A DNA stretch of 64,000 nucleotides from Candidatus Bathyarchaeia archaeon. Its GTDB lineage: Archaea; Thermoproteota; Bathyarchaeia; Bathyarchaeales; Bathycorpusculaceae. The position numbers and the translations under genes are program-made. How positions within the stretch are numbered: the first letter of the stretch is position 1; each line of letters starts with the position of its first letter. The notes below the pieces were generated by a model. It was not told where the DNA came from. It saw only the letters and a list, made by a program, of their open reading frames with translations, and searched no databases. This document shows positions 22,411 through 35,699 of this stretch, piece after piece. The stretch covers positions 1 to 64,000 of the forward strand of contig JAVZLH010000001.1 in assembly GCA_038883855.1 (NCBI GenBank). The letters run 5' to 3'.

Positions 22411-23067
22411 TTGAAATTGAAAAAGAAAGGTATAATTGGTATAGACTTGGCTGGGAAACCAGAAAATCCTACTGGTTGGGCTTTGCTGCTGGGTAACAAT
22501 GCGAAAACAGGAGTTATTTATACGGATGGCGAAATTCTGGAGTTTATAGTCAGAAACAGCCCAGCGTTAGTTGCCATCGACGCCCCTTTTAGCCTACCAA
22601 AGACTGGTCTTTTGAGAAAGGCGGATAAGGAGATGATAAAGATGGGATATAGAGTTTTTCCGCCAAACCTTCCTTCAATGAGAGCCCTTACATTGCGGGC
22701 AATGAAGCTAAACAAGTTAATGGCAAAAAGCGGATACAAAACAATAGAGGTGCATCCAACTTCAACGCGAAAAGCCTTAAACATGCCCGCAAGAGATTTA
22801 GAGGCTATACAAGGAATCTTGAAAAGCATGGGGTTGAAAGGAGATATAGAAGTGCGCCCTTTAACAGCACATGAAATCGACGCGGTCACTGCAGCATTAA
22901 CGGGTTACCTCTACACAAAAAATAAAACGGAGTCCATAGGGGATGTGGAAGAGGGTTACATAACTGTTCCAATAAGGTGCGACTGGAGGGTGTTAAAATT
23001 TGAGTGTGATGGAAAAACTTCAGAAAGCTGTAGAAACGACAATTGCCGCAGGGTACCAGCTAGATAA
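22411..23067 (+). CDS. DUF429-family predicted RNase H-fold nuclease
   Basis: GIDLAG, AIDAP, IEVHP and HEIDAV motifs. Confidence 0.8.
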   Translation: MKLKKKGIIGIDLAGKPENPTGWALLLGNNAKTGVIYTDGEILEFIVRNSPALVAIDAPFSLPKTGLLRKADKEMIKMGYRVFPPNLPSMRALTLRAMKLNKLMAKSGYKTIEVHPTSTRKALNMPARDLEAIQGILKSMGLKGDIEVRPLTAHEIDAVTAALTGYLYTKNKTESIGDVEEGYITVPIRCDWRVLKFECDGKTSESCRNDNCRRVPAR

Positions 23068-24547
23068 AGAAGCCTTTGAGTTCCTCAAAACCGCTGCTGT
23101 AACAGGAGACCCTCTAGAAATCGTGAACAAAGCTCTGGCAAAGATGGAAAATCAAAAGGAAAAAGCGTTTTTCATTGACAGAAACTTTTTGGAATCGTTA
23201 ATGAAGGATTTTGAAAAACCAGAGGGGAACCTGCCCTCCCAAAAAGAAATCCCTCAACAACTTCCCGAACTGCAGATAACTGAGGGGAAAAAAGTTTTCC
23301 ACCCATACGCAAAGGGTGTTGACGCAAAAATCAGCGTAATCGAAGACCCGAGCACCGAAATAGGTTCTGAGGGTGCCATTGAAGACTACTTAAAGTATTT
23401 CTGCGACCGGTTTAAGCGTATGGAAAAGTTGCTGAGGCAGAGAATGGACGCTAAAGCTGCTGCCTCAATTGTGGACGCTCTAAAATCGCCAGCCAACACA
23501 AAGTTAAAAATAGTTTGCATGATTACGGATAAGAGAGAATCAAAACAGCGAATTATATTAACAGTAGAGGATTTACAAGCAAACGCCATCGCACTTGTGC
23601 CGCAAAACGCCTCACAAGAACTTTTGGCGAAAGCGCGGTCGCTTCTGCTTGACCAGGTTGTCTGTTTAGCTGTCACAAAAACGAGAAGCGACCTCCTCAT
23701 AGTGGAAGACATAATTTTGCCAGACATAAGCCAGAGACAACAGCACAAAGCACCGCTGCCAGTTTACGCCGTTTTAACTTCCGACCTTCACGTTGGCAGC
23801 ACAAAATTTCAGAAGAAGATGTTTGACCGTTTTGTGGCTTGGCTTAACGGTAATTATGGAAACGAAAAAATGAGAGAAATGGCAAGCCATGTCAAATACG
23901 TGTTGGTTGCAGGCGACATAGTTGATGGAATAGGCGTTTATCCAAACCAAATAAAGGAGTTGGCGGTGAAAGACATCCACAAGCAGTATATGCTTGCGTC
24001 AAAATACATGGAAGATATACCAGAATATATAGAGGTAGTGGTGATACCTGGAAACCACGATGCTCCGAGGAAAGCCTTGCCTCAACCAGCAATAGCAAGC
24101 GAATTCCTCAAGACACTGCAAGAAACAAGAAAAGTCCACTCCTTTGGAAACCCTTGTATGCTCAGCCTCCACGGTGTAGAAATTTTGCTATACCACGGGC
24201 GAAGCCTAGACGACCTTCTCCACACAATCCCGAAAGTGGACACCCCAGAGCAAGCTATGAAATTGCTACTGCAAAGCCGCCATTTAGCACCAATATATGG
24301 CGGAAAAACCATGGTTTCGCCCGAAAACAAGGACTTCTTAGTGATTGAACGTGTTCCAGACATTTTCCACGCGGGGCACGTGCACATACTTGGTCATACA
24401 AACTATCGCGGAACATTAATTGTGAATTCGGGCTGCTGGCAGGAACAGACTGAATACATGAAGAGAATGGGACTTACCCCAACCCCTGGAAAGGTCCCGG
24501 TGATTAACTTACAAACTTTGGAACTTATGGTGGTATCCTTTGATTAA
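23000..24547 (+). CDS. polD1: DNA polymerase D small (proofreading) subunit DP1
   Basis: OB fold followed by SDLHVGS, GDIVDG, PGNHD, YHG and HAGHVH calcineurin-like motifs. Confidence 0.95.
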   Translation: MSVMEKLQKAVETTIAAGYQLDKEAFEFLKTAAVTGDPLEIVNKALAKMENQKEKAFFIDRNFLESLMKDFEKPEGNLPSQKEIPQQLPELQITEGKKVFHPYAKGVDAKISVIEDPSTEIGSEGAIEDYLKYFCDRFKRMEKLLRQRMDAKAAASIVDALKSPANTKLKIVCMITDKRESKQRIILTVEDLQANAIALVPQNASQELLAKARSLLLDQVVCLAVTKTRSDLLIVEDIILPDISQRQQHKAPLPVYAVLTSDLHVGSTKFQKKMFDRFVAWLNGNYGNEKMREMASHVKYVLVAGDIVDGIGVYPNQIKELAVKDIHKQYMLASKYMEDIPEYIEVVVIPGNHDAPRKALPQPAIASEFLKTLQETRKVHSFGNPCMLSLHGVEILLYHGRSLDDLLHTIPKVDTPEQAMKLLLQSRHLAPIYGGKTMVSPENKDFLVIERVPDIFHAGHVHILGHTNYRGTLIVNSGCWQEQTEYMKRMGLTPTPGKVPVINLQTLELMVVSFD

Positions 24548-25074
24548 GAGAGCCCACGTGCTACTAACCTTGCAACTCGTAATGGTTCTGGAATTCTGCT
24601 CTTTATAGATAAAGCTTGCAAAAGTTTTTCAGTTGTCCTAAAATCAAGAGCTATGGTTTCGACATATATTGGTGTCTCGCCGGTTACAACGACACAGCGT
24701 GCGGTTTCCAGTTTTTCAAAAATTTGCCAGCGTACTTTCCAGTCCTTAAAGTGTTTCTGGAGAGCTTGTTTGACCGCCTTGTTGTTGGGTTTTTTCCGTG
24801 ACACAATGAGTATTGGCTTCTGAAATTTCTCATAAACGGCTGTGGGGTCAATTATGTTAAACCCAGCGAAGGATACTCCAGCAAGCAGAACCGCTACAAA
24901 GTCCCATCCGATCAACATTTCGGTTAGTTTATCTGTCGCGTCTAAACCGTCAACCGTTATTCTTGCAACTTTAATATCCTCAATTTCAACGCCTTTAGAT
25001 AAGACTGCCGCCAAAATGGCTTTTTTAGTTATGCCTTTCTGGAAACTGCCATCTTCAACTCCCACAACGGGCAT
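24544..25074 (-). CDS. DUF99-family (endonuclease V-like) protein
   Basis: VGVEDGSF, VDGLDAT, FAGFNIID and IPEPLRVA motifs; likely ATG at 25074 overlapping the cdc6 stop. Confidence 0.8.
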   Translation of the reverse strand: MPVVGVEDGSFQKGITKKAILAAVLSKGVEIEDIKVARITVDGLDATDKLTEMLIGWDFVAVLLAGVSFAGFNIIDPTAVYEKFQKPILIVSRKKPNNKAVKQALQKHFKDWKVRWQIFEKLETARCVVVTGETPIYVETIALDFRTTEKLLQALSIKSRIPEPLRVARLVARGLS

Positions 25075-26335
25075 TTTTCGAAAGGCATTTTGGCTCATAC
25101 TCAACCAGTCTCTCAAGCCTAACGTCATCCTTGAAAACTTCTCTGATAAGAGTACGTGGTATTTCCAGCCTAATCTTTTTTGTGCGCCCATAGCGCCCCA
25201 TACTTACAACTTTAGCGTTCAGCAGCCCCATCGCGTCAAGCTCGTTCACTAAAGTTCCCAACCGACGCTGAGTTAATGGTACAACGCCCATTTCGCCGCA
25301 GAGTTCCGAATAGATTTCGTAAATTTCCCCGGTAACAGAACTCTTAGCATCTACTTTATTCAAGTGATATACGCTGAAAAGCACTAGTTTGGAATGCAAC
25401 GTTAGATTTTTGAGGGCTTCTACAACTCTGTTTCGTTCAATGTGTTTTTCGGCTTCCCTAACATGGTCTTCAGATACAACATTCGCTCCGTTCCGTTCAG
25501 CAATTTCACCAGCAACCCGCAGTAAATCCAAAGCTCGCCTTGCATCGCCATGTTCCGCAGCCGCTAAAGCTGCACAAATACTTAAGGCACCCTCTGACAG
25601 CGCACCTTCGTGAAATGCTAATTTTGCTCGTTCAAGAAGAATGTTGCGAAGCTCGCTTGCGTCATAGGGTCTGAAAACCATTTCCTCCTCACTAAGCGAG
25701 CTTAAAACACGGGGATCTAGAAATTCTTTGAAGCGGAGGTCGTTTGAGATGCCTATTAGAGAGACTTTGCTATTATGGAGTGTCTCGTTTACTCTTGTTA
25801 ATTCATAGAGAAGCTCATCTCCACGAGTTTTCACAAGTGAATCCACTTCATCCAATGCCACAATTAACATCGTCTTCCCCGCGTCAAGCCTCTTCCTGAA
25901 TCGGTCAAAAACTTCTCCTACAGAAAGACCTGTAAACGGTATATGAAGCCCTATGCTTTGGCATAGACTTGCAAACACACGATACTCGGAGCCGACCATA
26001 CGACAGTTTACATAACAGAATTTAACTGGAGCGTTATACTCTTTTGCAGTTGCCTCTAGATACCCCAGCACATATTTTGTAACGGCTGTCTTCCCTGTAC
26101 CTGTTTTTCCATAAATGAAGATATTAGAGCACCGTGCGGCTTTGAGGACAGGGGCAACTATTTCGCCAAGCAACTTTATCTGTTCCTCTCTATGAGGTAA
26201 TTTTTCTGGAAGGTAATCGTGGCGCAAGACTTCTCTATCCTTGAAAATCTTGGAGTTATTAACAAATCTGCGAAACACGTTGACTAATACATCGTCGTCC
26301 AACTGAAACCCCCTCAATCTCTCCAAAGGTAGCAC
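25055..26335 (-). CDS. cdc6: Orc1/Cdc6 replication initiator
   Basis: LPHREEQ, GKTGTGKT, LDEVD, HGDARRALDLL and C-terminal wHTH with GRYGRT. Confidence 0.96.
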   Translation of the reverse strand: MLPLERLRGFQLDDDVLVNVFRRFVNNSKIFKDREVLRHDYLPEKLPHREEQIKLLGEIVAPVLKAARCSNIFIYGKTGTGKTAVTKYVLGYLEATAKEYNAPVKFCYVNCRMVGSEYRVFASLCQSIGLHIPFTGLSVGEVFDRFRKRLDAGKTMLIVALDEVDSLVKTRGDELLYELTRVNETLHNSKVSLIGISNDLRFKEFLDPRVLSSLSEEEMVFRPYDASELRNILLERAKLAFHEGALSEGALSICAALAAAEHGDARRALDLLRVAGEIAERNGANVVSEDHVREAEKHIERNRVVEALKNLTLHSKLVLFSVYHLNKVDAKSSVTGEIYEIYSELCGEMGVVPLTQRRLGTLVNELDAMGLLNAKVVSMGRYGRTKKIRLEIPRTLIREVFKDDVRLERLVEYEPKCLSKNARCGS

Positions 26336-26437
26336 CTCTTTTTCTTATGGATAAGATAAGCTATGCCGTATAGAAAACTAAATTTTTGACACTACATTCC
26401 TAAAGAGAAAGAAAATTGTTTTGAGGGACAGAGAGCG

Positions 26438-26461
26438 CACCCCCGAATTTCCACTGGAAAC
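26438..26461 (-). promoter_or_regulatory. Origin recognition box ORB1
   Basis: Minus strand GTTTCCAGTGGAAATTCGGGGGTG: ORB core plus G-string. Confidence 0.88.
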
Positions 26462-26614
26462 TCTAAAAGCACCTTTCACAAGATGCTGTTTTCCTTTTAA
26501 AAAGGAAAAATACTCTGAAAGGTAAAGCATTAAAAACCATAATAATAATTATTATTAAAAAAATTAGACAATTATTTAAAACAGCTTGCATATACTTTGC
26601 CAGAAGTTCTAACT

Positions 26615-26637
26615 TTTCCAGAGGAAACTAAGGGGTG
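26615..26637 (+). promoter_or_regulatory. Origin recognition box ORB2
   Basis: TTTCCAGAGGAAACTAAGGGGTG, inverted relative to ORB1. Confidence 0.88.
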
Positions 26638-26857
26638 AGCTTCACATCATGAACTCCAAACTGTTTCCCATTTTCTCTATTCTTTTCATTTTTCTTAAAT
26701 ATTCCCAAAACATACAATTTCAATTATTCCCCTTTAACCGTCACCTTTAAACTTCACAAAAATGTGAAAAGATTGTGAAATAAACTCAAGAATGTTTCTT
26801 TTTCAACCTTTTTATTCCAATAATTTAACTTTTTATGTCTCTTTACTGTAAAAAAGA

Positions 26858-26881
26858 CACCCCTTTATTTCTACTGGAAAC
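26858..26881 (-). promoter_or_regulatory. Origin recognition box ORB3
   Basis: Minus strand GTTTCCAGTAGAAATAAAGGGGTG. Confidence 0.85.
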
Positions 26882-27079
26882 AAATGCTTAACTCTATCCT
26901 ATTCTCTTTTGAATTATGGAAAAATTCTGTGAAGTCCGTAAGCATGAAAAGGTGGAAAAAAAGGGTCTTTTTGTGTTTTCGTAAAAAAATAACCTTTTTA
27001 TCAATTGTTTCTTTCACCGTAATAGCTATAACTAGTTAACTGTAAAATTGTACACTCGGGCAATGGTGTACTCTTAGGG

Positions 27080-27508
27080 ATGCCAGCGAGAAAGATGCGT
27101 GTTGAACTATTCGATAATGAGGGGAATCGATACACGATAGTTTTTGAAGGGCAAGTTACAAGAGATAAAGCCCTACGCTTATTAGACCTTGTAGAGTTAC
27201 TCGGGGGGATACCAGCTAATGAGAGCAATCCAAACACCATTACCGCAAGCAACACTGACGTTCCAAAATGTGAAAAAGTTCACATTTGCGTCCAAAAGAA
27301 CTTTCCAGTTGTCTGGTTCTCTTCAAGGGATGTGCAAGCAGCTTATGAGCAAGAGTTTAAAGAACCTATAAGCTTAAGCACCGTAGCCACATACCTTGCA
27401 AGGATGGCTAACAAAGGATACCTCTTAAAGACTGGAGCCTCCAACAAGTTAAAGTATAGACTCGCTTCCCATATTCCGCAAGTTGTTCCAAAACATAAAA
27501 TTCCTTAA
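27080..27508 (+). CDS. Uncharacterised two-domain protein with C-terminal winged helix
   Basis: Short N-terminal beta-beta-alpha-like segment, polar linker, then WFSSRDVQ...ISLSTVATYLARMANKGYL wHTH pattern. Confidence 0.75.
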   Translation: MPARKMRVELFDNEGNRYTIVFEGQVTRDKALRLLDLVELLGGIPANESNPNTITASNTDVPKCEKVHICVQKNFPVVWFSSRDVQAAYEQEFKEPISLSTVATYLARMANKGYLLKTGASNKLKYRLASHIPQVVPKHKIP

Positions 27509-27523
27509 TTAAACTTACATTAA

Positions 27524-28228
27524 CTATGCATTTTTACTTTCTGTCTTCTTTAAGATATCCTCCATTTCCTTTTTAACACTATACTTAAACGGAATCTTTT
27601 TTATATCCCTCTCTAAATAACCCGCCTCATAAAGCTTCTTCATCAACCTCGCCGTATGCTCCCTACTAAGCTTAATTCTCTCCTTAATCTCAGGAGCAGT
27701 CTTAGGTCCCTCAAGAGCCAACATCCTTAACACTGCCACCTCTGTTTCGGTCAAGGGGGCCAAGGCCTTCTCCTTCTTTATTGGGATTACCGCTTCAGCT
27801 CTGATCTCAGGGGCCTCTGAAAAATGACGCAGCTGTTCTTCTATGGCCGAAACCTTTGCAACTAAAATTTCATGTGACGCAACAGTATCACGCATTCTCT
27901 TATCCACGTCCTCAACTTTCGTTACTGCTTCTGTTTCAACTTTTGCAATTTTATCCTCTAAGATGCGCATTTTTCCTTCAACCTTCTCAGCCTTGCTTAA
28001 CGCCTTTTCACTTTTTGAAGAAAGAGCCTCAACTTTAAACGCTAAAGTTTCAAGCTTTTCGCCTTCGCGTTTAAGTTGCCTGTTAAAGCTTAGAACGACA
28101 TCTTCAACGACCTCTTTCGCTTTGCTATATTCTCTGCAAATTTTGCGAATTTGACGGTAATATTCAATCGCAGCACCGACTGTTGCGGTAAGCAGAACAC
28201 CAAGAAGAATTAACGAAAAATCAAGCAT
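27524..28228 (-). CDS. Membrane-anchored coiled-coil protein with C-terminal winged helix
   Basis: N-terminal TM (FSLILLGVLLTATVGAAI), about 110 aa of heptad-rich K/E helix, then LTETEVAVL...KTAPEIK...SREHTARLMKKL wHTH. Confidence 0.8.
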   Translation of the reverse strand: MLDFSLILLGVLLTATVGAAIEYYRQIRKICREYSKAKEVVEDVVLSFNRQLKREGEKLETLAFKVEALSSKSEKALSKAEKVEGKMRILEDKIAKVETEAVTKVEDVDKRMRDTVASHEILVAKVSAIEEQLRHFSEAPEIRAEAVIPIKKEKALAPLTETEVAVLRMLALEGPKTAPEIKERIKLSREHTARLMKKLYEAGYLERDIKKIPFKYSVKKEMEDILKKTESKNA

Positions 28229-28241
28229 ACTTTCACCCCTA

Positions 28242-28529
28242 CGTGATTCCTATGTGATAACGCTTGACTCAAACATGTTACATCACAAATCACAATTCCA
28301 CGCACTTATGATTTAAAAGTTACGGTTATCAAGGTGTATGACATCACACATCACAAGATAACTGAAGCAATATTTGAATAAACGCTTTTGAATAAAAGCT
28401 CTATTTATTCTGTTTGAGAATATTTTAGAGTTTTTTCTGATTTTTGTTTTCTTAACTGCTTTATTTAGGTGTTGACGCGTGTTTTGCGTTTTGTATTCCA
28501 AAATTTAATGTGACTTGTGACGTCACAAG
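28242..28529. repeat. Array of TGTGA(T/C)/(A/G)TCACA motifs, including three 19-bp tripartite units and a perfect 16-bp palindrome
   Basis: Units at 28276-28294, 28337-28355 and 28509-28527; palindrome CTTGTGACGTCACAAG at 28514-28529. Confidence 0.8.
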
Positions 28530-28990
28530 CTTTCCTCGGATGAATTTGCAAACTTTTTCAGTTGAATTTCAAGCTCTTCCCTGAGAATTTCGATGATTTT
28601 AAGCTGTTCAGTTTTGTTGGGCATGTTTTTGAATGCTTCTACATATTCCCGTAGTTTGTTACCTATTTCAAGATAAGGGTCTAAAGTTGTGGTCTCAAAG
28701 ATTCCCAAGTACCCTAAAAGAAGCACAGTGTAAATAGCTTTTATGACGTTTTGCTTTGCTTGTTTTAAAGTCCTATTGAAGGCTCCGCGGCTTATTTTAG
28801 CATTTGTTAGTCGTAATTTGGCTTTTTCATCGTATTTTAGCGGTTTACCCGCAGCGTTTTCGGATAAAATGTCAATTAGTAATGTTTCTAGCTGCGTTTT
28901 CGTTAAATTGCTATTTTTAGCGAGAATTTTAGCAACAGGGTCATTTAATGAGCTTATTATTAAAGATTGAACGCTTTCTTTAAGCTTCAA
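28523..28990 (-). CDS. Uncharacterised helical protein with HTH-like segment
   Basis: SNLTKTQLETL...KYDEKAKLR...ISRGAFNRTLKQAK pattern; TTG start. Confidence 0.7.
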   Translation of the reverse strand: MKLKESVQSLIISSLNDPVAKILAKNSNLTKTQLETLLIDILSENAAGKPLKYDEKAKLRLTNAKISRGAFNRTLKQAKQNVIKAIYTVLLLGYLGIFETTTLDPYLEIGNKLREYVEAFKNMPNKTEQLKIIEILREELEIQLKKFANSSEESL

Positions 28991-29418
28991 AGTCTACACC
29001 ACACGAGCACTCCCTGTGGATACAATTTTGTATACAGCCTACGCTTTTAAAACCATCGATGACGGATAAAAACTTTAATGCTTTTGAATTACCTTCCAAG
29101 AATGGCTAAAAACAATAAAGCCTTATGAAATATGGCGATTTTTTGTTTTAGACAAATAAAATCGCCGATTAAGCGCGCCCCATTTCTCCATCAAGCACGA
29201 TCTCTTGAAGTTAAGAGATATTCCGCCTTGGGCTACGCAAGCCTATAGCTAAAAGTACGCCATAGTCAGAAAAGTAATATTGTCCAAGAGTTAACGGAAC
29301 AAAACACCTTCTCGACCGCTGTTGATTGAACTGGTAATGCGGGTGCAAGAATCGTTCACTATGAGATGAGCATTTCCTATCCTATCTTATTACCTAAGGA
29401 AAATAATTTAATCCTCTT

Positions 29419-29520
29419 TGTGAATACTGTGATGTCACTTGTCACGGAAAAGTCACGTGTGATGCCTCTCTTTCATGTAGAGTGTTGCCATAAATGTGAT
29501 TTTATTGTGATTTGCGTGAT
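29419..29520. repeat. Second dense array of GTGA/TCAC motifs (9 copies in 102 bp)
   Basis: Hexamers start at 29419, 29428, 29434, 29441, 29452, 29458, 29495, 29506 and 29515. Confidence 0.8.
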
Positions 29521-29523
29521 TTA

Positions 29524-30357
29524 TTAAAGGCTTTCTGCATGTCCTTTTAATTCGTCAAAAAGTTCAGGTCGTAGATCTTTCAAAGTTGGGACGAAAGTTT
29601 CAGTTGGCTTTATGTCCGCGTAGTCAATAGCACCAATTACAAGGTCTTCCTCGTCATACTTTGCGCAAGCAATAAGTTTTCCTTGAGGGCCTACAAGTCT
29701 GCTTCCTCCCCAAAATTGTAGGCCGTTTTCTATACCTACTAGATTAACGTATGCTAGGAAAGTGGTGTTTTCTATCGCTCTTGCCAATGTCAAAGTTTCG
29801 AAAAATGTCTTTCGAACAGATGGTGAGGCTGAAATGCAAACAATTAACTGGGCGCCTTTAAGGCGAGTTAGACGACATATTTCTGGAAAGAAGATGTCGT
29901 AACAGATTATCAACCCTATTCTCCCGATTTCTGTTTCGAAAGTTGCTGCTTGATATCCGGGTCGGAAATACCTTTTTTCTTCAAAAACACTGTGTGTTGG
30001 AAGGTGTATCTTCCGGTATTTTCCAACAAAACCTTCCGGCCCAACAAGAATTGCTGTGTTGTAAACCACGGCTTGAGTTTTCTCGCTTAATTCTGGCATA
30101 CCGAAAATTATATGCGTTTTATGTTTCTTCGCAACGTTTTCTATAGCCTTTGTTGAAGGTCCCGGTATTGTTTCCGCTAACTCGTAAATTTGGTCTCGAA
30201 TGACGTAGCCCGTTAGCGAAAGTTCTGGGAAAATTACGAGATGTGCATCTTGTTCTTTAGCTTTTGCGACGTATTTTTCCATTTTCCTAATGTTTTCTTT
30301 TTTGTTTCCTCTGTTGCAGCTTATTTGGGCTAGGGCAATCTTAAACTTACTTATCAT
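29524..30357 (-). CDS. Carbon-nitrogen hydrolase (nitrilase superfamily)
   Basis: E-K-C triad in FPELSLTGY, YRKIHLP and ICYDIFFPE. Confidence 0.9.
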   Translation of the reverse strand: MISKFKIALAQISCNRGNKKENIRKMEKYVAKAKEQDAHLVIFPELSLTGYVIRDQIYELAETIPGPSTKAIENVAKKHKTHIIFGMPELSEKTQAVVYNTAILVGPEGFVGKYRKIHLPTHSVFEEKRYFRPGYQAATFETEIGRIGLIICYDIFFPEICRLTRLKGAQLIVCISASPSVRKTFFETLTLARAIENTTFLAYVNLVGIENGLQFWGGSRLVGPQGKLIACAKYDEEDLVIGAIDYADIKPTETFVPTLKDLRPELFDELKGHAESL

Positions 30358-32285: not shown

Positions 32286-35200
32286 TTGAACGGTCCAATA
32301 AGTGAAACATATCGCCAATACGTAACTGCATTGGAAAGCGAGTTTAAACGGTTATACGCTTTAAGTGAAAAAGCGAGAGAAAAAGGGTTCGACCCTGCGC
32401 TAAAGCCAGAATCCAAAATTGCAAGAGATCTAGCAGACCTTGTAGAGGGTCTTGTAGGTCCAAAAGGCGTGGCCGAAAGCATTAGGGAATTAAGCGAGAA
32501 ACTTTCGCGCGAAGAATTAGCCTTTAAAATAGTTGAAGAAATAATTTATGGAAAATTTGGCCACATGGAACCCGAGGCGGCGGCGGAACAAGCGATACGA
32601 ACTGCCCTTGCAATTTTCACTGAGGGGCTCACCGCAGCGCCGATACAGGGAGTGGCGAAGGTTAAAATTAAAACAAACCGTGACCGCACTCGCTATCTTG
32701 CCATTTACTTTGCTGGTCCAATAAGGTCTGCGGGCGGAACAGACCAGGCGCTGACGCTTGTTGTAGGAGATTTCGTGCGACGTCTTCTCGGCTTAGACCG
32801 TTACAAGCCTTTGGACGATGAGGTTTCACGCTTTATTGAAGAAGTAAGGCTTTATGAACGTTCAGTAAGCCGTTTTCAATACCATGTTTCTGATGAGGAA
32901 TTGCGGAGAGCTCTCCAATGGCTGCCAGTGGAAGTTACAGGCACGGAATCCGACCCCATAGAAGTTTCTGCTTTTCGGAATCTTCCCCGAATTGAAACCA
33001 ACCGTTTGAGGGGCGGAGCCCTCCGCGTTGTTAATGATGGCATTGTTGGGCGCGCGCCAAAAGTTTGGGCTATTATAGAGAAGCTTGGTTTTCAAGGATG
33101 GGATTGGCTGAAGGAGTTTCAAAAGAAGTCTGAGAAAAAATCCGGAGGCTTTATGGATGATGTAATTGCTGGACGCCCGATATTCTCTTTTCCGTCTGCC
33201 CGTGGCGGTTTTAGGTTAAGGTATGGTAGGGCGAGAAACACGGGCTTAGCCGCCGTTGGAATGCACCCGGCAAGCATGCAAGTGCTCGGCGGCTTTTTGG
33301 CGGCTGGAACACAACTACGTTTGGAGCTTCCAGGCAAGGGTGGCATTGCGGTTCCAGTTGACGCTTTAGAACCGCCAATTGTCAAGCTGAAAGATGGTTC
33401 TGTTGTTCGTGTTTCCACTGAAAACTATGCTAGGATAAAGGGTGATGTTGAGAAAATTCTCTTTTTGGGAGACATTTTAATCAGTTTTGGGGATTTTCTT
33501 TACAACAGTAAAGTTCTCGTGCCTTCTGGGTATGTTGAAGAGTGGTGGGCTGAAGATCTGAAAAGGGCTTTGGCTGAAAAATTCAATGGTAACCTTGAAA
33601 AGGCTGCGGAAGCTGCAAAAATTCCAGTGGAGAAAATTAAGGGTTTCTTGGAAAATCCATTTGGCAAAAAGCCAAATGTTAAAGAAGCTATAGCCTTGTC
33701 GTTTGCAATTGGTGTTCCTCTTCACCCGGCTTTCACGTTTTTCTGGTCGAATCTTGTTTCGCTTGAAGAGCTTGCCCTTTTAAGGAAATGGCTCTCTGCT
33801 TCCGTAGTTGATTATGGTAATGGAGTCTGCAAAATTTCTGGAGAGATAGACGCAAAGGTCAAGCATGCCCTAGAGGCTATTTATTTGCCGCACAAGGTTT
33901 TAGATGGAAAAATAGTTGTCGAAAACGAGGAAGCCTATGCCTTTGCCTTTTCCCTTGGCTATGGAACTACGCGGAACACTGATATTTCAGCGGCAAAATC
34001 TGTTTTGGAAGCTGTCAGTTTGCTTTCCGGCGTGCAAATTAGGGATAAGGCTCCTACGCTTGTTGGCGCCAGAATGGGAAGACCTGAAAAGGCAAAGCGG
34101 CGGGAAATGAAGCCCCCTGTTCATGTTCTTTTCCCCGTTGGCTTGGCTGGAGGTGCCCAAAGAGACATTGTAGAGGCGGCGAAGGGAGGGCCAGTTTTTG
34201 TGGAGGTTGTTAAGCGTAAATGCCCAACGTGTAAGACGTTTACCTTTGGCATAAGATGTCCTGTTTGTGGCTCTGAAACTGTCACTGAAAATGTTTGTCC
34301 TATATGCGGGAAGAGTGTGAAGAATGATAAATGTCCAATTTGTAAAGTGCCGGCAAAACCCTTCCAAACGCAAGTTGTTAACTTTAAGGAACTGTTGGAG
34401 ACGGCTTGTGCGCGTTTGGGTTTTTCTTTGCCTAAGGTTTTGAAAGGCGTTAGAGGGTTAACAAATGAGACAAAGACTCCGGAGATTATTGAGAAGGGTG
34501 TTCTCCGCGCTAAATATGACTTGTCTGTTTACAAGGATGGCACAATTCGTTTTGACGCGACAAATGCTCCCTTAACGCATTTTAAACCGTCTGAAATTGG
34601 AGTGTCTGTTGAGAAACTGAAGGAGCTTGGCTATGCCTATGATGTTTATGGCGCGCCGTTAACTAACCCAGATCAAGTTTGTGAATTAAAGATTCAAGAC
34701 ATCATCATTCCCGTGAAATGCGCGGAATATTTTGTTCATGTTGCAAATTTCCTAGATGACCTTTTAACCAAGGTTTATGGGCTCGCTACCTACTATAACG
34801 TTAGGAAGCCGGAAGATCTTGTGGGGCATCTTGTTTTTGGCTTAGCTCCTCATACATCTGTGGGTATTCTGGGGCGGATTGTTGGCTTCACCAGTTTAAA
34901 TGTTTGTTATGCTCATCCAGTTTGGCATTCTGCTAAACGCAGAGATTGTGATGGCGACGAGGATGCGTTGATGCTTGCTTTGGACACTTTGCTTAACTTT
35001 TCAACTGAGTATTTGCCCGCGCAAATAGGCGGGATAATGGATGCTCCGCTGCTTGTGATTCCTGTTGTCAACACTAAGGAAGTGCAGAGGCAAGCCCATG
35101 ATTTTGATGTCGCAGAGGCTTATCCTCTCGAGTTTTACGAGAAAACATGGGAAAAAGTGGAAGCCAAACGCGTAAGTTCCCTCATAGACCTTATCGAATA

Positions 35201-35699
35201 CAGACTCGGCACCGAGGCACAGTTCGAGGGCTTCAAGTTTACTGTGCCAGTCACGAATGTCAACATGGGGAATCCTGAAAGCGCCTATAAACGGCTTACA
35301 ACGATGATTGATAAACTTAACAGCCAGTTGGAGTTGGCTGAGAAAATAGAGGCTGTGGACGCGAGAAGGGTTGCCCTTAAGGTTTTAACAACGCATTTCA
35401 TAAGGGACATTGCTGGTAATTTGCGGGCTTACTCCACTCAAGGTTTTAGGTGCAAAGCATGCAACAAACGTTTTCGCCGTTTACCTCTTTGCGGAAAATG
35501 CCCGTCATGCGGTGGGCAACTAACTTTAACGGTTTACCGTGGGGGCATCGAAAAATATTTGGAGGCAGCTCAGCGGTTGGTTGAAAGGTATGGTTTGCCG
35601 CAGTATTATGCTCAGAGGATTTTGTTAATGAAAGAGGAGATTAAGGCGTTGTTTGAGGGGAAAAAGCGGAAGCAAATCAGCCTAATTGATTTTGCCTAA
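32286..35699 (+). CDS. polD2: DNA polymerase D large subunit DP2, no intein
   Basis: FAGPIRSAGGT, GGFRLRYGR, RMGRPEK, catalytic RRDCDGDED and zinc-finger Cys clusters. Confidence 0.97.
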   Translation: MNGPISETYRQYVTALESEFKRLYALSEKAREKGFDPALKPESKIARDLADLVEGLVGPKGVAESIRELSEKLSREELAFKIVEEIIYGKFGHMEPEAAAEQAIRTALAIFTEGLTAAPIQGVAKVKIKTNRDRTRYLAIYFAGPIRSAGGTDQALTLVVGDFVRRLLGLDRYKPLDDEVSRFIEEVRLYERSVSRFQYHVSDEELRRALQWLPVEVTGTESDPIEVSAFRNLPRIETNRLRGGALRVVNDGIVGRAPKVWAIIEKLGFQGWDWLKEFQKKSEKKSGGFMDDVIAGRPIFSFPSARGGFRLRYGRARNTGLAAVGMHPASMQVLGGFLAAGTQLRLELPGKGGIAVPVDALEPPIVKLKDGSVVRVSTENYARIKGDVEKILFLGDILISFGDFLYNSKVLVPSGYVEEWWAEDLKRALAEKFNGNLEKAAEAAKIPVEKIKGFLENPFGKKPNVKEAIALSFAIGVPLHPAFTFFWSNLVSLEELALLRKWLSASVVDYGNGVCKISGEIDAKVKHALEAIYLPHKVLDGKIVVENEEAYAFAFSLGYGTTRNTDISAAKSVLEAVSLLSGVQIRDKAPTLVGARMGRPEKAKRREMKPPVHVLFPVGLAGGAQRDIVEAAKGGPVFVEVVKRKCPTCKTFTFGIRCPVCGSETVTENVCPICGKSVKNDKCPICKVPAKPFQTQVVNFKELLETACARLGFSLPKVLKGVRGLTNETKTPEIIEKGVLRAKYDLSVYKDGTIRFDATNAPLTHFKPSEIGVSVEKLKELGYAYDVYGAPLTNPDQVCELKIQDIIIPVKCAEYFVHVANFLDDLLTKVYGLATYYNVRKPEDLVGHLVFGLAPHTSVGILGRIVGFTSLNVCYAHPVWHSAKRRDCDGDEDALMLALDTLLNFSTEYLPAQIGGIMDAPLLVIPVVNTKEVQRQAHDFDVAEAYPLEFYEKTWEKVEAKRVSSLIDLIEYRLGTEAQFEGFKFTVPVTNVNMGNPESAYKRLTTMIDKLNSQLELAEKIEAVDARRVALKVLTTHFIRDIAGNLRAYSTQGFRCKACNKRFRRLPLCGKCPSCGGQLTLTVYRGGIEKYLEAAQRLVERYGLPQYYAQRILLMKEEIKALFEGKKRKQISLIDFA

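Follow-up and report, generated by a model that had tools for sequence, protein, structure and literature searches.

Genes and predicted origin beside cdc6

The window analysed here is a stretch of 64,000 nucleotides from the genome of a Candidatus Bathyarchaeia archaeon of hot springs (contig JAVZLH010000001.1). It encodes a cdc6/orc1 initiator gene, followed by a spacer with the features of a replication origin and by three small genes that we designate A, B and C. The original prediction had grouped these genes with the surrounding DNA as a system for tethering or segregating the origin, and had described the repeats around them as one motif. The repeats are real, but they belong to three classes rather than one: TGTGAA among the origin repeats and in front of A, GTGAY around B and C, and a dyad upstream of C. 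The TGTGAA cluster, the densest GTGAY clusters and the dyad are unique in the assembly searched for recurrence (1,109,576 bp, G000, with contigs C1, C2 etc.), and are not common in unrelated promoters. The three open reading frames (ORFs) were borne out by ORF calls, and the predicted origin with its repeats resembling origin recognition boxes (ORBs) adjoins them. The core of the locus is as follows.

25055-26335 (-): cdc6/orc1 initiator gene (Pfam Cdc6_C 9e-27, Cdc6_lid 1.3e-26, AAA domains)
26438-26461: ORB1, C-string and TTCCA..GGAAAC dyad; direct repeat with ORB3, 83% identity
26615-26637: ORB2, inverted relative to ORB1 and ORB3; inverted repeat, 83% complementary to ORB3
26858-26881: ORB3
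27080-27508 (+): gene A, 142 amino acids (aa)
27524-28228 (-): gene B, 234 aa
28523-28990 (-): gene C, 155 aa, TTG start

The spacer between cdc6 and A (744 bp) has a GC content of 0.30-0.34, versus about 0.44 in its surroundings, and contains the three ORB-like repeats of 23-24 nt. The initiator gene lies 103 bp from ORB1, one of the three repeats is inverted, and the stretch is AT-rich, as in archaeal origins of the Orc1/Cdc6-ORB type. The other two spacers are 294 bp (B to C) and 533 bp (C to a nitrilase gene). For comparison, the locus was set against those of 20 relatives from 12 families of the order, giving 21 loci. Where labels are used below, G0xx stands for genomes, L0xx and L1xx for compared loci, and fxx for lineages.

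Gene A encodes a small protein of the linker and winged-helix type that had been predicted. Its model (21-row alignment, mean pLDDT 72) comprises two strands and a helix (residues 3-41), a disordered linker (pLDDT below 50 at residues 43-58) and a winged helix that best matches the DNA-binding domain of Fur (Z 11.0, rmsd 2.6 A over 70 residues). Foldseek matches have probabilities near 1 and E values of 0.004-0.03. Penicillinase_R scores below its cut-off in 20 of the 21 members, and no fold match covers the N-terminal domain.

Gene B encodes a protein with the predicted succession of a membrane helix, a long helix and a C-terminal winged helix. The single hydrophobic stretch covers residues 3-21 (KD19 2.0, and above 1.6 in 20 of the 21 aligned members, the exception being an ORF called from an internal start), so that only 2-3 residues are placed outside the membrane. 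An amphipathic or coiled-coil helix follows at about residues 25-140 (44% charged, one proline, hydrophobic period 3.55), then a conserved IPIK linker and the winged helix at 159-218, which passes the Pfam cut-offs for MarR (31.6 bits, cut-off 24.6) and TrmB (27.6 bits, cut-off 25.6). The Pfam match spans residues 159-218 only, and the remainder of the protein consists of the membrane helix and the long helix. Regulators of the MarR/TrmB type are soluble dimers in which helices of both termini pack around the winged helix. In B, the recognition region SREHTARLMKKLY..GYLER hardly varies. Coiled-coil length varies and the coiled coil is nearly absent in forms of 143-146 aa. The membrane anchor is present also in lineages f37, f44, f49, f48 and f54. 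In three genomes that carry amoA, B combines a membrane helix with a short helix and shares the recognition region. Public records hold 4325 relatives of B, and the best 120 of these 4325 are named only as MarR-family or helix-turn-helix (HTH) proteins.

The model of C is all-helical (mean pLDDT 73), with a conserved N-terminal part (residues 1-95) and a helical hairpin (about 100-155), and 35 positions are invariant across the order. C belongs to no Pfam or NCBIfam family, and a sequence-profile search of the PDB gave chance-level matches only (E 1.5). A wide structure search with residues 96-155 only, the C-terminal hairpin, returned Z scores of up to 7.7. In the ESM Atlas we identified unnamed Bathyarchaeota clusters and one distant cluster (score 0.80) in which 14% of the members carry Sigma70_r4, a weak lead. 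In a search for defence systems (PADLOC), A and C match no defence protein model, and the winged helix of B alone resembles Csa3/CARF_TM models (E 1.4e-6).

Three motif classes and an embedded element

What was observed directly is where the motifs lie, that they are unique in the genome and conserved, and that they occur together with the genes. The motifs of the TGTGAA class lie in the cdc6-A spacer.

26475, 26641 and 26928: single copies of the TGTGAA class
26753-26779: TTCACA-N4-TGTGAA-N5-TGTGAA cluster, between ORB2 and ORB3
27024-27055 (+): promoter of A, a TATA-like ctataac followed by degenerate heptads TAGTTAAC / TGTAAAA / TTGTACAC

The cluster at 26753-26779 is the sole spot in the assembly with three copies of TGTGAA in 60 bp, and it lies about 18 bp off the midpoint between ORB2 and ORB3. 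Over the 21 loci, TGTGAA is the most enriched 6-mer of the cdc6-A spacers (98 found vs 6.7 expected), exceeding even the G-string of the ORBs, and TGTGAY is found there 0-2 times per locus. The copies keep their positions in relatives, which have the cluster, two single copies and, ahead of the start of A, a pair that follows the TATA box, and the aligned upstream regions of A in the 21 loci read cTATAACtTGTGAAnTGTAAAnnTGTGAAC. In lineages f44 and f49, TGTGAA is kept among the ORBs (9 copies in 1238 bp and 11 in 1301 bp) though A has moved to between 18 kb and about 500 kb from cdc6, and the DNA upstream of the relocated A is without TGTGAA. A (T)GTGAA copy lies about 18-23 bp from the ORB G-string in four f44/f49 origins, as judged by eye. 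The amoA-positive genomes carry TGTTAA instead (30 vs 1.1 expected) together with GTTAAC (14 vs 0.06 expected), and the recognition helix of A reads LSIISTYL in these genomes vs LST[VAI]STYL elsewhere. Because its motif class belongs to oriC, A is a candidate accessory origin factor and probably binds there. A near-perfect palindrome of the origin's motif class, AAATGTGAA-AAAG-TTCACATTT, is present inside gene A itself (27266-27287), where it codes PKCEKVHIC; it seems to be limited to the genus of the window.

The second class, GTGAY, surrounds B and C, and the third is the dyad in front of C.

28243-28258: putative operator O3 of B in its 5' leader, ATCAC-N6-ATCAC (- strand), with a layout conserved in relatives
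28282-28294: putative operator O2 of B, tandem GTGAT-tt-GTGAT, which is GTGATttGTGAT (- strand), about 27 bp downstream of the TATA centre and over the expected start site
28311-28319 (-): TATA-like box of B, cTTTTAAATc (- strand; ccataatctttaaat in relatives), identified by eye
28338-28355: putative operator O1 of B, GTGATgtGTGATgtcat (- strand), about 34 bp upstream of the TATA centre
28509-28527: tandem pair and palindrome over the stop codon of C, TGTGACtTGTGAC followed directly by GTCACA
29018-29035: dyad GGATACA-ATTT-TGTATAC, 28 nt upstream of the TTG start of C
29044-29052: TATA-like ttttaaaag beside the dyad

TGTGAY is not enriched across the window as a whole (49 found vs 45.4 +/- 6.6 expected), and 12 of the 49 copies fall in 28253-29511. 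Only six 120-bp stretches of the assembly contain at least three copies, and three of these are located here: the two densest, with 5 and 4 copies, and one of the four that have three. In the B-C spacers of the 21 loci, TGTGAT is the most enriched 6-mer (84 vs 4.6 expected) and TGTGAC reaches 37 vs 2.3. Half-sites are found in 7-bp tandems, in head-to-head palindromes and in 11-bp pairs. At the start of the B-C spacer, 17 of the 21 loci have a tandem pair (cGTCACaaATCACa or a sequence close to it), L024, L025, L027 and L030 have a GTGAY cluster of another arrangement, and L028 and L032 have none. The order of elements in the B promoter recurs in most of the 20 relatives; the layout is reduced in L028, and in L032 the sites fall within an over-long ORF call of B. 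In the leader, a GGGGTGA ribosome-binding site lies between O3 and the start codon of B.

GTGAY also follows B from genome to genome. In 14 loci with B, the densest 150 bp holds 3-9 TGTGAY. Five genomes (94-100% complete) either match the B profile A3 only in fragments (two genomes, E 0.001-0.008, fewer than 120 of 236 positions) or do not match it (three genomes), and these have at most two TGTGAY per 150 bp in the 16-kb locus around C, while A and C are kept. In f44 and f49, GTGAY sites precede the relocated genes for C and B. Two lone tandem sites (GTGATgtGTGAT and GTGATttGTGAT) were identified in intergenic DNA beside TATA-like sequence at C2:108852 and C10:16569. One of them directly follows a TATA-like ctttaaata. 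A 130-aa ORF downstream lacks a Pfam family. These two sites could be further targets; their count is no more than chance.

The strict form of the dyad, GGATACA-N4-TGTATAC, occurs once in the assembly. The dyad stands beside C in 20 of 21 Bathyarchaeia loci; in other lineages, 8 of 9 loci have it or a TACA-N5-TGTA variant no more than 40 nt upstream of C.

Further GTGAY copies lie beyond C, in the remains of a former gene.

28991-29523 (+): remains of a class-I aminotransferase gene that is intact in relatives (about 390 aa) and divergent from C
29429-29463: 35-bp element, GTGATGTCAC-tt-GTCAC-ggaaaa-GTCAC-gt-GTGAT, 0.45 kb upstream of C
29496-29520: three GTGAT copies, 11 and 9 bp apart

Searches of 26000-30000 (E up to 1) and of two other loci against Rfam found no RNA family. 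The 533-bp spacer thus holds no known RNA gene, and is instead a pseudogene relic: in relatives an intact aminotransferase gene (Pfam Aminotran_1_2, 1.6e-71) sits between C and the nitrilase gene, and comparison of the spacer with these genes by blastx aligns 29366-29464 (E 2e-5) and 29100-29189 (E 0.015, with an in-frame stop). The array at 29428-29520 consists of genuine GTGAY repeats that lie in a decayed coding sequence.

The intact genes carry GTGAYGTCAC-tt-GTCAC-N6-RTCAC-gt-GTGAT, coding V-M/T-S-L-V/I-T-x-K-S-R-V-M/I, and also contain a GTGAY-N6-GTGAT pair that codes RD-x-IVISD. In four genera where the gene has decayed, the element persists between flanks that are unrecognisable, and one of them has a frame-breaking change in a spacer of the element. 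Identity between the four genera is 0.76-0.82 in the element vs 0.54-0.66 in the flanks (6 of 6 pairs), and contigs of relatives in public sequencing runs match the window only at 29428-29464. No RNA data set was listed as containing the sequence; two runs labelled metatranscriptomic contain short contigs only and are probably DNA. When codon identity at invariant residues was compared over 115 segments of eight intact genes, the element and a second GTGAY-bearing segment shared the highest value (0.79 vs 0.60 elsewhere). Since the genes are few, and the second segment codes RD-x-IVISDEVY, a very conserved protein motif, the codon result is only suggestive of selection at the DNA level on the embedded element. 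A second case of the motif inside a neighbouring gene was identified in other Bathyarchaeia orders, where a HypF gene lies between B and C and its coding sequence has GTGAY clusters (L117:8980-9260 and L128:9440-9720, with 7 and 4 TGTGAY in 150 bp) in the segment coding ..ITR.PDVIACD.HP...

Gene order and spread

The wider neighbourhood of the locus contains the following genes.

23000-24547 (+): PolD small subunit
24544-25191 (-): Endo_dU gene
After C and the 533-bp spacer: nitrilase, NadE and GGGP synthase genes
32286-35699 (+): PolD large subunit

The cdc6 and Endo_dU ORFs, both on the - strand, overlap by 137 nt (25055-25191) when called from their first start codons; the true start of Endo_dU probably lies further downstream.

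A search of 61 genomes of the order recovered A in 54, B in 53, C in 55 and cdc6 in 59. The linkage to the initiator gene that the original prediction had proposed to look for is present: genomes having the gene place it within 10 kb of the cdc6 ortholog in 49 of 54 cases for A, 46 of 53 for B and 44 of 55 for C. In the remaining genomes the genes are on different contigs or the partner is missing, and no genome has them at a large distance on a single contig. In the class as a whole, C was detected in 126 of 151 genomes, and 15 of 20 loci from the other orders have it within 8 kb of cdc6; for the phylum the figure is 97 of 201 genomes. In three amoA-positive genomes, which belong to another class, the gene order is PolD-small, cdc6, A, B, C, GGGP synthase, PolD-large. 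The cdc6-A-B-C block is kept in f41, f48 and f54. The exceptions are f44 and f49, where C is joined to a short B (143-146 aa) in an operon, with a 1-bp gap or an overlap between the two genes; this operon lies 14 kb to more than 100 kb from cdc6 and carries both the C dyad and GTGAY sites. Synteny extends over the entire block between PolD-small and PolD-large, including the nitrilase, NadE and GGGP synthase genes, and it tolerates unrelated inserts such as HypF and PPDK. Thus, adjacency alone is weak evidence. The genomes carry 2-5 Cdc6 paralogs.

Three genomes in which A, B and C were not found (G045, G046 and G047) were considered as natural knock-outs and rejected, as they look like assembly gaps rather than losses. 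In G045 (C6, L163) only 255 bp of contig remain past cdc6, and the search of G046 did not find even the cdc6 ortholog. An AT-rich, repeat-bearing origin locus may often break assemblies.

Other genes have entered the block in relatives. Between A and B, 22 of 50 genomes of the order carry two further genes that run in the same direction as A: one is NurA-like (about 340 aa; Pfam NurA E 0.00094, below cut-off), the other HerA-like (about 520 aa; DUF87 E 1e-11 to 1e-12). Examples are L015:3054-5637 and also L016-L018, L025, L026, L029 and L031. The window has neither gene, and searches of the assembly (G000), G001 and G015 did not find the NurA-like one. A DNA-pumping ATPase in the operon of A could bear on the idea of segregation. 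The insert was considered as a defence island and rejected, since PADLOC gave generic HerA matches only. The B-C interval of f41, f48 and f54 encodes a protein of some 200 aa in which an XRE-like HTH and a CBS-like pair were read by eye (L148:8300-8896, L150:6927-7562, L152:8487-9077), and in two Bathyarchaeia families (L127, L128) B directly follows a CBS-like gene and there is no GTGAY array.

Function of the locus and known systems

The explanation that we favour, with roughly even confidence and from sequences and models, is that A, B and C are three self-regulated DNA binders, of which A acts at the origin and B binds from the membrane. We infer which protein binds which motif, as well as repression and any effect on initiation or on origin position. 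The stretch would consist of a cdc6-proximal origin and an old three-gene module in which each gene has an operator over its own promoter. C, helical and probably a dimer, would most likely repress itself via the dyad between its TATA box and start site. B would be held in the membrane by its N-terminal helix, with the MarR-type winged helix carried on the amphipathic helix, and would most likely bind the GTGAY half-sites around its TATA box and start site, over the stop of C and in the 35-bp element. In this way it would repress its own gene and enclose C. Because B would be fixed in the membrane and bind sites that bracket C, a 1.3-kb stretch located 2-3 kb from the ORBs of oriC would be held at the membrane. 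A would most likely bind the TGTGAA repeats on its own promoter and among the ORBs, as an accessory origin factor whose level would be tied to the occupancy of its sites.

Several observations weigh against this explanation. The assignments of proteins to motifs come from co-occurrence, and an operator is lost with its gene whichever protein binds it; the loss of GTGAY alongside B is thus expected if the sites simply form the B promoter. The changes of motif and of helix in the ammonia oxidisers amount to a single evolutionary event, which is consistent with A reading the motif and is no proof of it. The A protein of f41 has LSTVATYL, yet few motif copies are present there (TGTGAA 2, TGTTAA 4 in 1120 bp), the promoter of A in the window itself has degenerate heptads only, and B of f41 has no membrane helix as its ORF was called. 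The segment LT..Q.E...(20)..SRGAFNR.L.QA..N of C was read by eye as a putative HTH, and the best Foldseek match of C in the PDB has an E value of 0.41. Tandem GTGAT sites elsewhere occur at chance level (8 genome-wide vs 6.7 +/- 2.1 in shuffles). In addition, regulators that act only on themselves make little biological sense, so that a further target or function is needed. As no cluster recurs in the genome, a local, architectural role is favoured over a regulon, which keeps alive the idea that the original prediction had put forward.

That idea, a dedicated device for origin tethering or segregation without a ParA-type motor, in which B would anchor a centromere-like GTGAY array and A and C would serve as adaptors, is improbable in our view, yet parts of it stand. 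B has the makings of an anchor, as it hardly extends to the outer side and combines a long amphipathic helix with a DNA-binding end; its membrane helix is kept in 20 of 21 members and in f37, f44, f49, f48 and f54. The GTGAY clusters are the densest in the assembly and found only here, and linkage to cdc6 extends through the order, the class and the ammonia oxidisers. As predicted, there is no ParA- or SegA-type gene in the window (no Pfam AAA_31 or CbiA match over cut-off). However, the arrays follow B and C, not oriC, in f44 and f49; the five genomes with a fragmentary B match or none have no GTGAY cluster and yet keep A and C; the length of the coiled coil is not conserved; the sites, flanking the TATA box of B and covering its expected start site, have the layout of an archaeal promoter operator; and metabolic genes share the same synteny. 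It is somewhat less improbable, and still unlikely, that the three genes encode ordinary transcription factors with nothing more than an inherited gene order, the TGTGAA copies being read by an Orc1/Cdc6 paralog, by a chromatin protein or as part of an extended ORB. The block between the PolD genes is syntenic class-wide and accepts unrelated inserts, linkage is broken in f44 and f49, any of the 2-5 Cdc6 paralogs could read a second motif, the distance between (T)GTGAA and the ORB G-string in the four f44/f49 origins would suit an extended ORB, and public records call B only a MarR-family or HTH protein. Yet no motif cluster recurs in the assembly, so that no regulon is visible; TGTGAA heptads lie between the TATA box and the start of A throughout the order, tying the motif to expression of A; the motif and the helix of A change together in the ammonia oxidisers; and C is unusually conserved for a small regulator, both in its 35 invariant positions and in its spread (126/151 in the class, 97/201 in the phylum).

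One-pass membrane regulators such as ToxR and CadC are known in bacteria, and B could by analogy be a sensor of membrane state that is released or switched by membrane stress or proteolysis and controls C, in which case the arrays would be operators with no link to replication. The translational coupling of C and B in f44 and f49 and the GTGAY sites that bracket C are compatible with such a role. With 2-3 residues outside the membrane, however, B has no sensor domain, we identified no conserved protease or partner gene nearby, and the TGTGAA class in oriC would be left unexplained; of the explanations considered this appears the least probable. At the other extreme, A, B and C may form one ParA-independent origin-organising system common to Bathyarchaeia and ammonia oxidisers, in which A would mark oriC via TGTGAA/TGTTAA and modulate initiation, B would clamp the GTGAY cluster so that new origins stay at the envelope, and C would set the level of the system, with cis sites written into, and outliving, neighbouring coding genes. 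We regard this as a speculative proposal with a low chance of being correct.

The explanation in terms of self-regulated DNA binders can be compared with known systems. At Sulfolobus oriC1, an accessory motif (ucm) midway between ORBs is bound by a small non-initiator protein, UBP, and is essential (Dhanaraju et al. 2025, PMC12141716); these authors ask whether other lineages have analogues. UBP is described as a beta-rich saddle of 111 aa with hundreds of genomic sites, present in Sulfolobales and Desulfurococcales only and encoded away from the origin (PMC12141716). The locus described here shares with it a short non-ORB motif between inverted ORBs (26753-26779), whose position and conservation were observed, and A would be comparable in logic, not in fold: unlike UBP, it has a Fur-type winged helix, is encoded beside oriC, and is predicted to bind a motif with 4-7 copies and no other cluster in the genome. 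The omega repressor of pSM19035, a ribbon-helix-helix protein of 71 aa, binds 7-10 contiguous parS heptads (WATCACW) that serve as operator and centromere, and works with a ParA ATPase (PMC3074150). The GTGAY sites resemble these heptads in their ATCAC five-base core, their 7-bp spacing, their direct or inverted orientation (and 11-bp pairs) and their position over promoters, a likeness that counts for the tether; unlike the heptads, they are mostly half-site pairs, the proteins that may bind them are of the winged-helix or HTH kind, and a ParA partner is not encoded nearby.

SegAB of Sulfolobus includes a site-specific DNA binder with sites beside its own operon and the ParA-type SegA, and has been proposed to act in chromosome segregation (PMC12139799; bioRxiv 10.1101/2025.02.07.637068). 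By description, the sites next to the genes of their candidate binders are alike; unlike in SegAB, there is no linked gene for a ParA-type ATPase. Thus, of the hallmarks of ParABS, SegAB and type Ib systems, the cluster of repeated sites near the genes is present and the linked ATPase is absent. By ORF inspection, with comparison to our own reference set only, no ParA-type gene was identified in the 20+20 loci of relatives either. The nearest AAA_31/CbiA matches are outside the window at C1:107-116 kb, where three genes of the ParA/MinD superfamily (CbiA or AAA_31 over cut-off; C1:107156-116486), two of them in tandem, lie 80-90 kb from the origin.

Bacillus RacA is a soluble protein with an N-terminal MerR-type domain that reaches the pole via DivIVA. 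By description, B is like RacA with its ram sites in joining a DNA-binding domain to a coiled coil that would link origin-proximal repeats to the envelope; unlike RacA, B is itself a membrane protein, with a C-terminal MarR-type domain.

The oapABC/arvABC genes of haloarchaea are likewise a conserved cluster of three genes beside the initiator gene and the main origin, divergent from the Orc gene. Their products, a small GTPase, a protein with DUF2073 and a zinc-ribbon protein with DUF2072, are needed for vesicle formation (PMC7002104, PMC10927574). A, B and C match none of these families. The precedent counts against a tether and serves as a warning that adjacency to an origin need not mean a function at the origin.

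We found no published description of these genes, of the TGTGAA origin motif or of the embedded element in the literature covered, which extended to neither supplements nor subscription papers. The parts are of known kinds (winged-helix regulators, operators, accessory origin motifs); their combination and spread appear to be undescribed. Little is known about factors other than Orc1/Cdc6 that act at archaeal origins, and chromosome segregation is unexplained in most archaea. UBP is the one accessory origin factor described, and is confined to Sulfolobales and Desulfurococcales (PMC12141716). The locus offers as candidates a second conserved origin motif in Bathyarchaeia and several related lineages, which the ammonia oxidisers have in altered form, a conserved gene for a winged-helix protein next to that motif, and a membrane-anchored putative DNA binder with a genome-unique cluster of sites. 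It also provides a clean example of putative protein-binding sites that are embedded in coding sequence and persist after decay of the gene. If cultured ammonia oxidisers also carry the trio beside cdc6, the question would be open to bench work.

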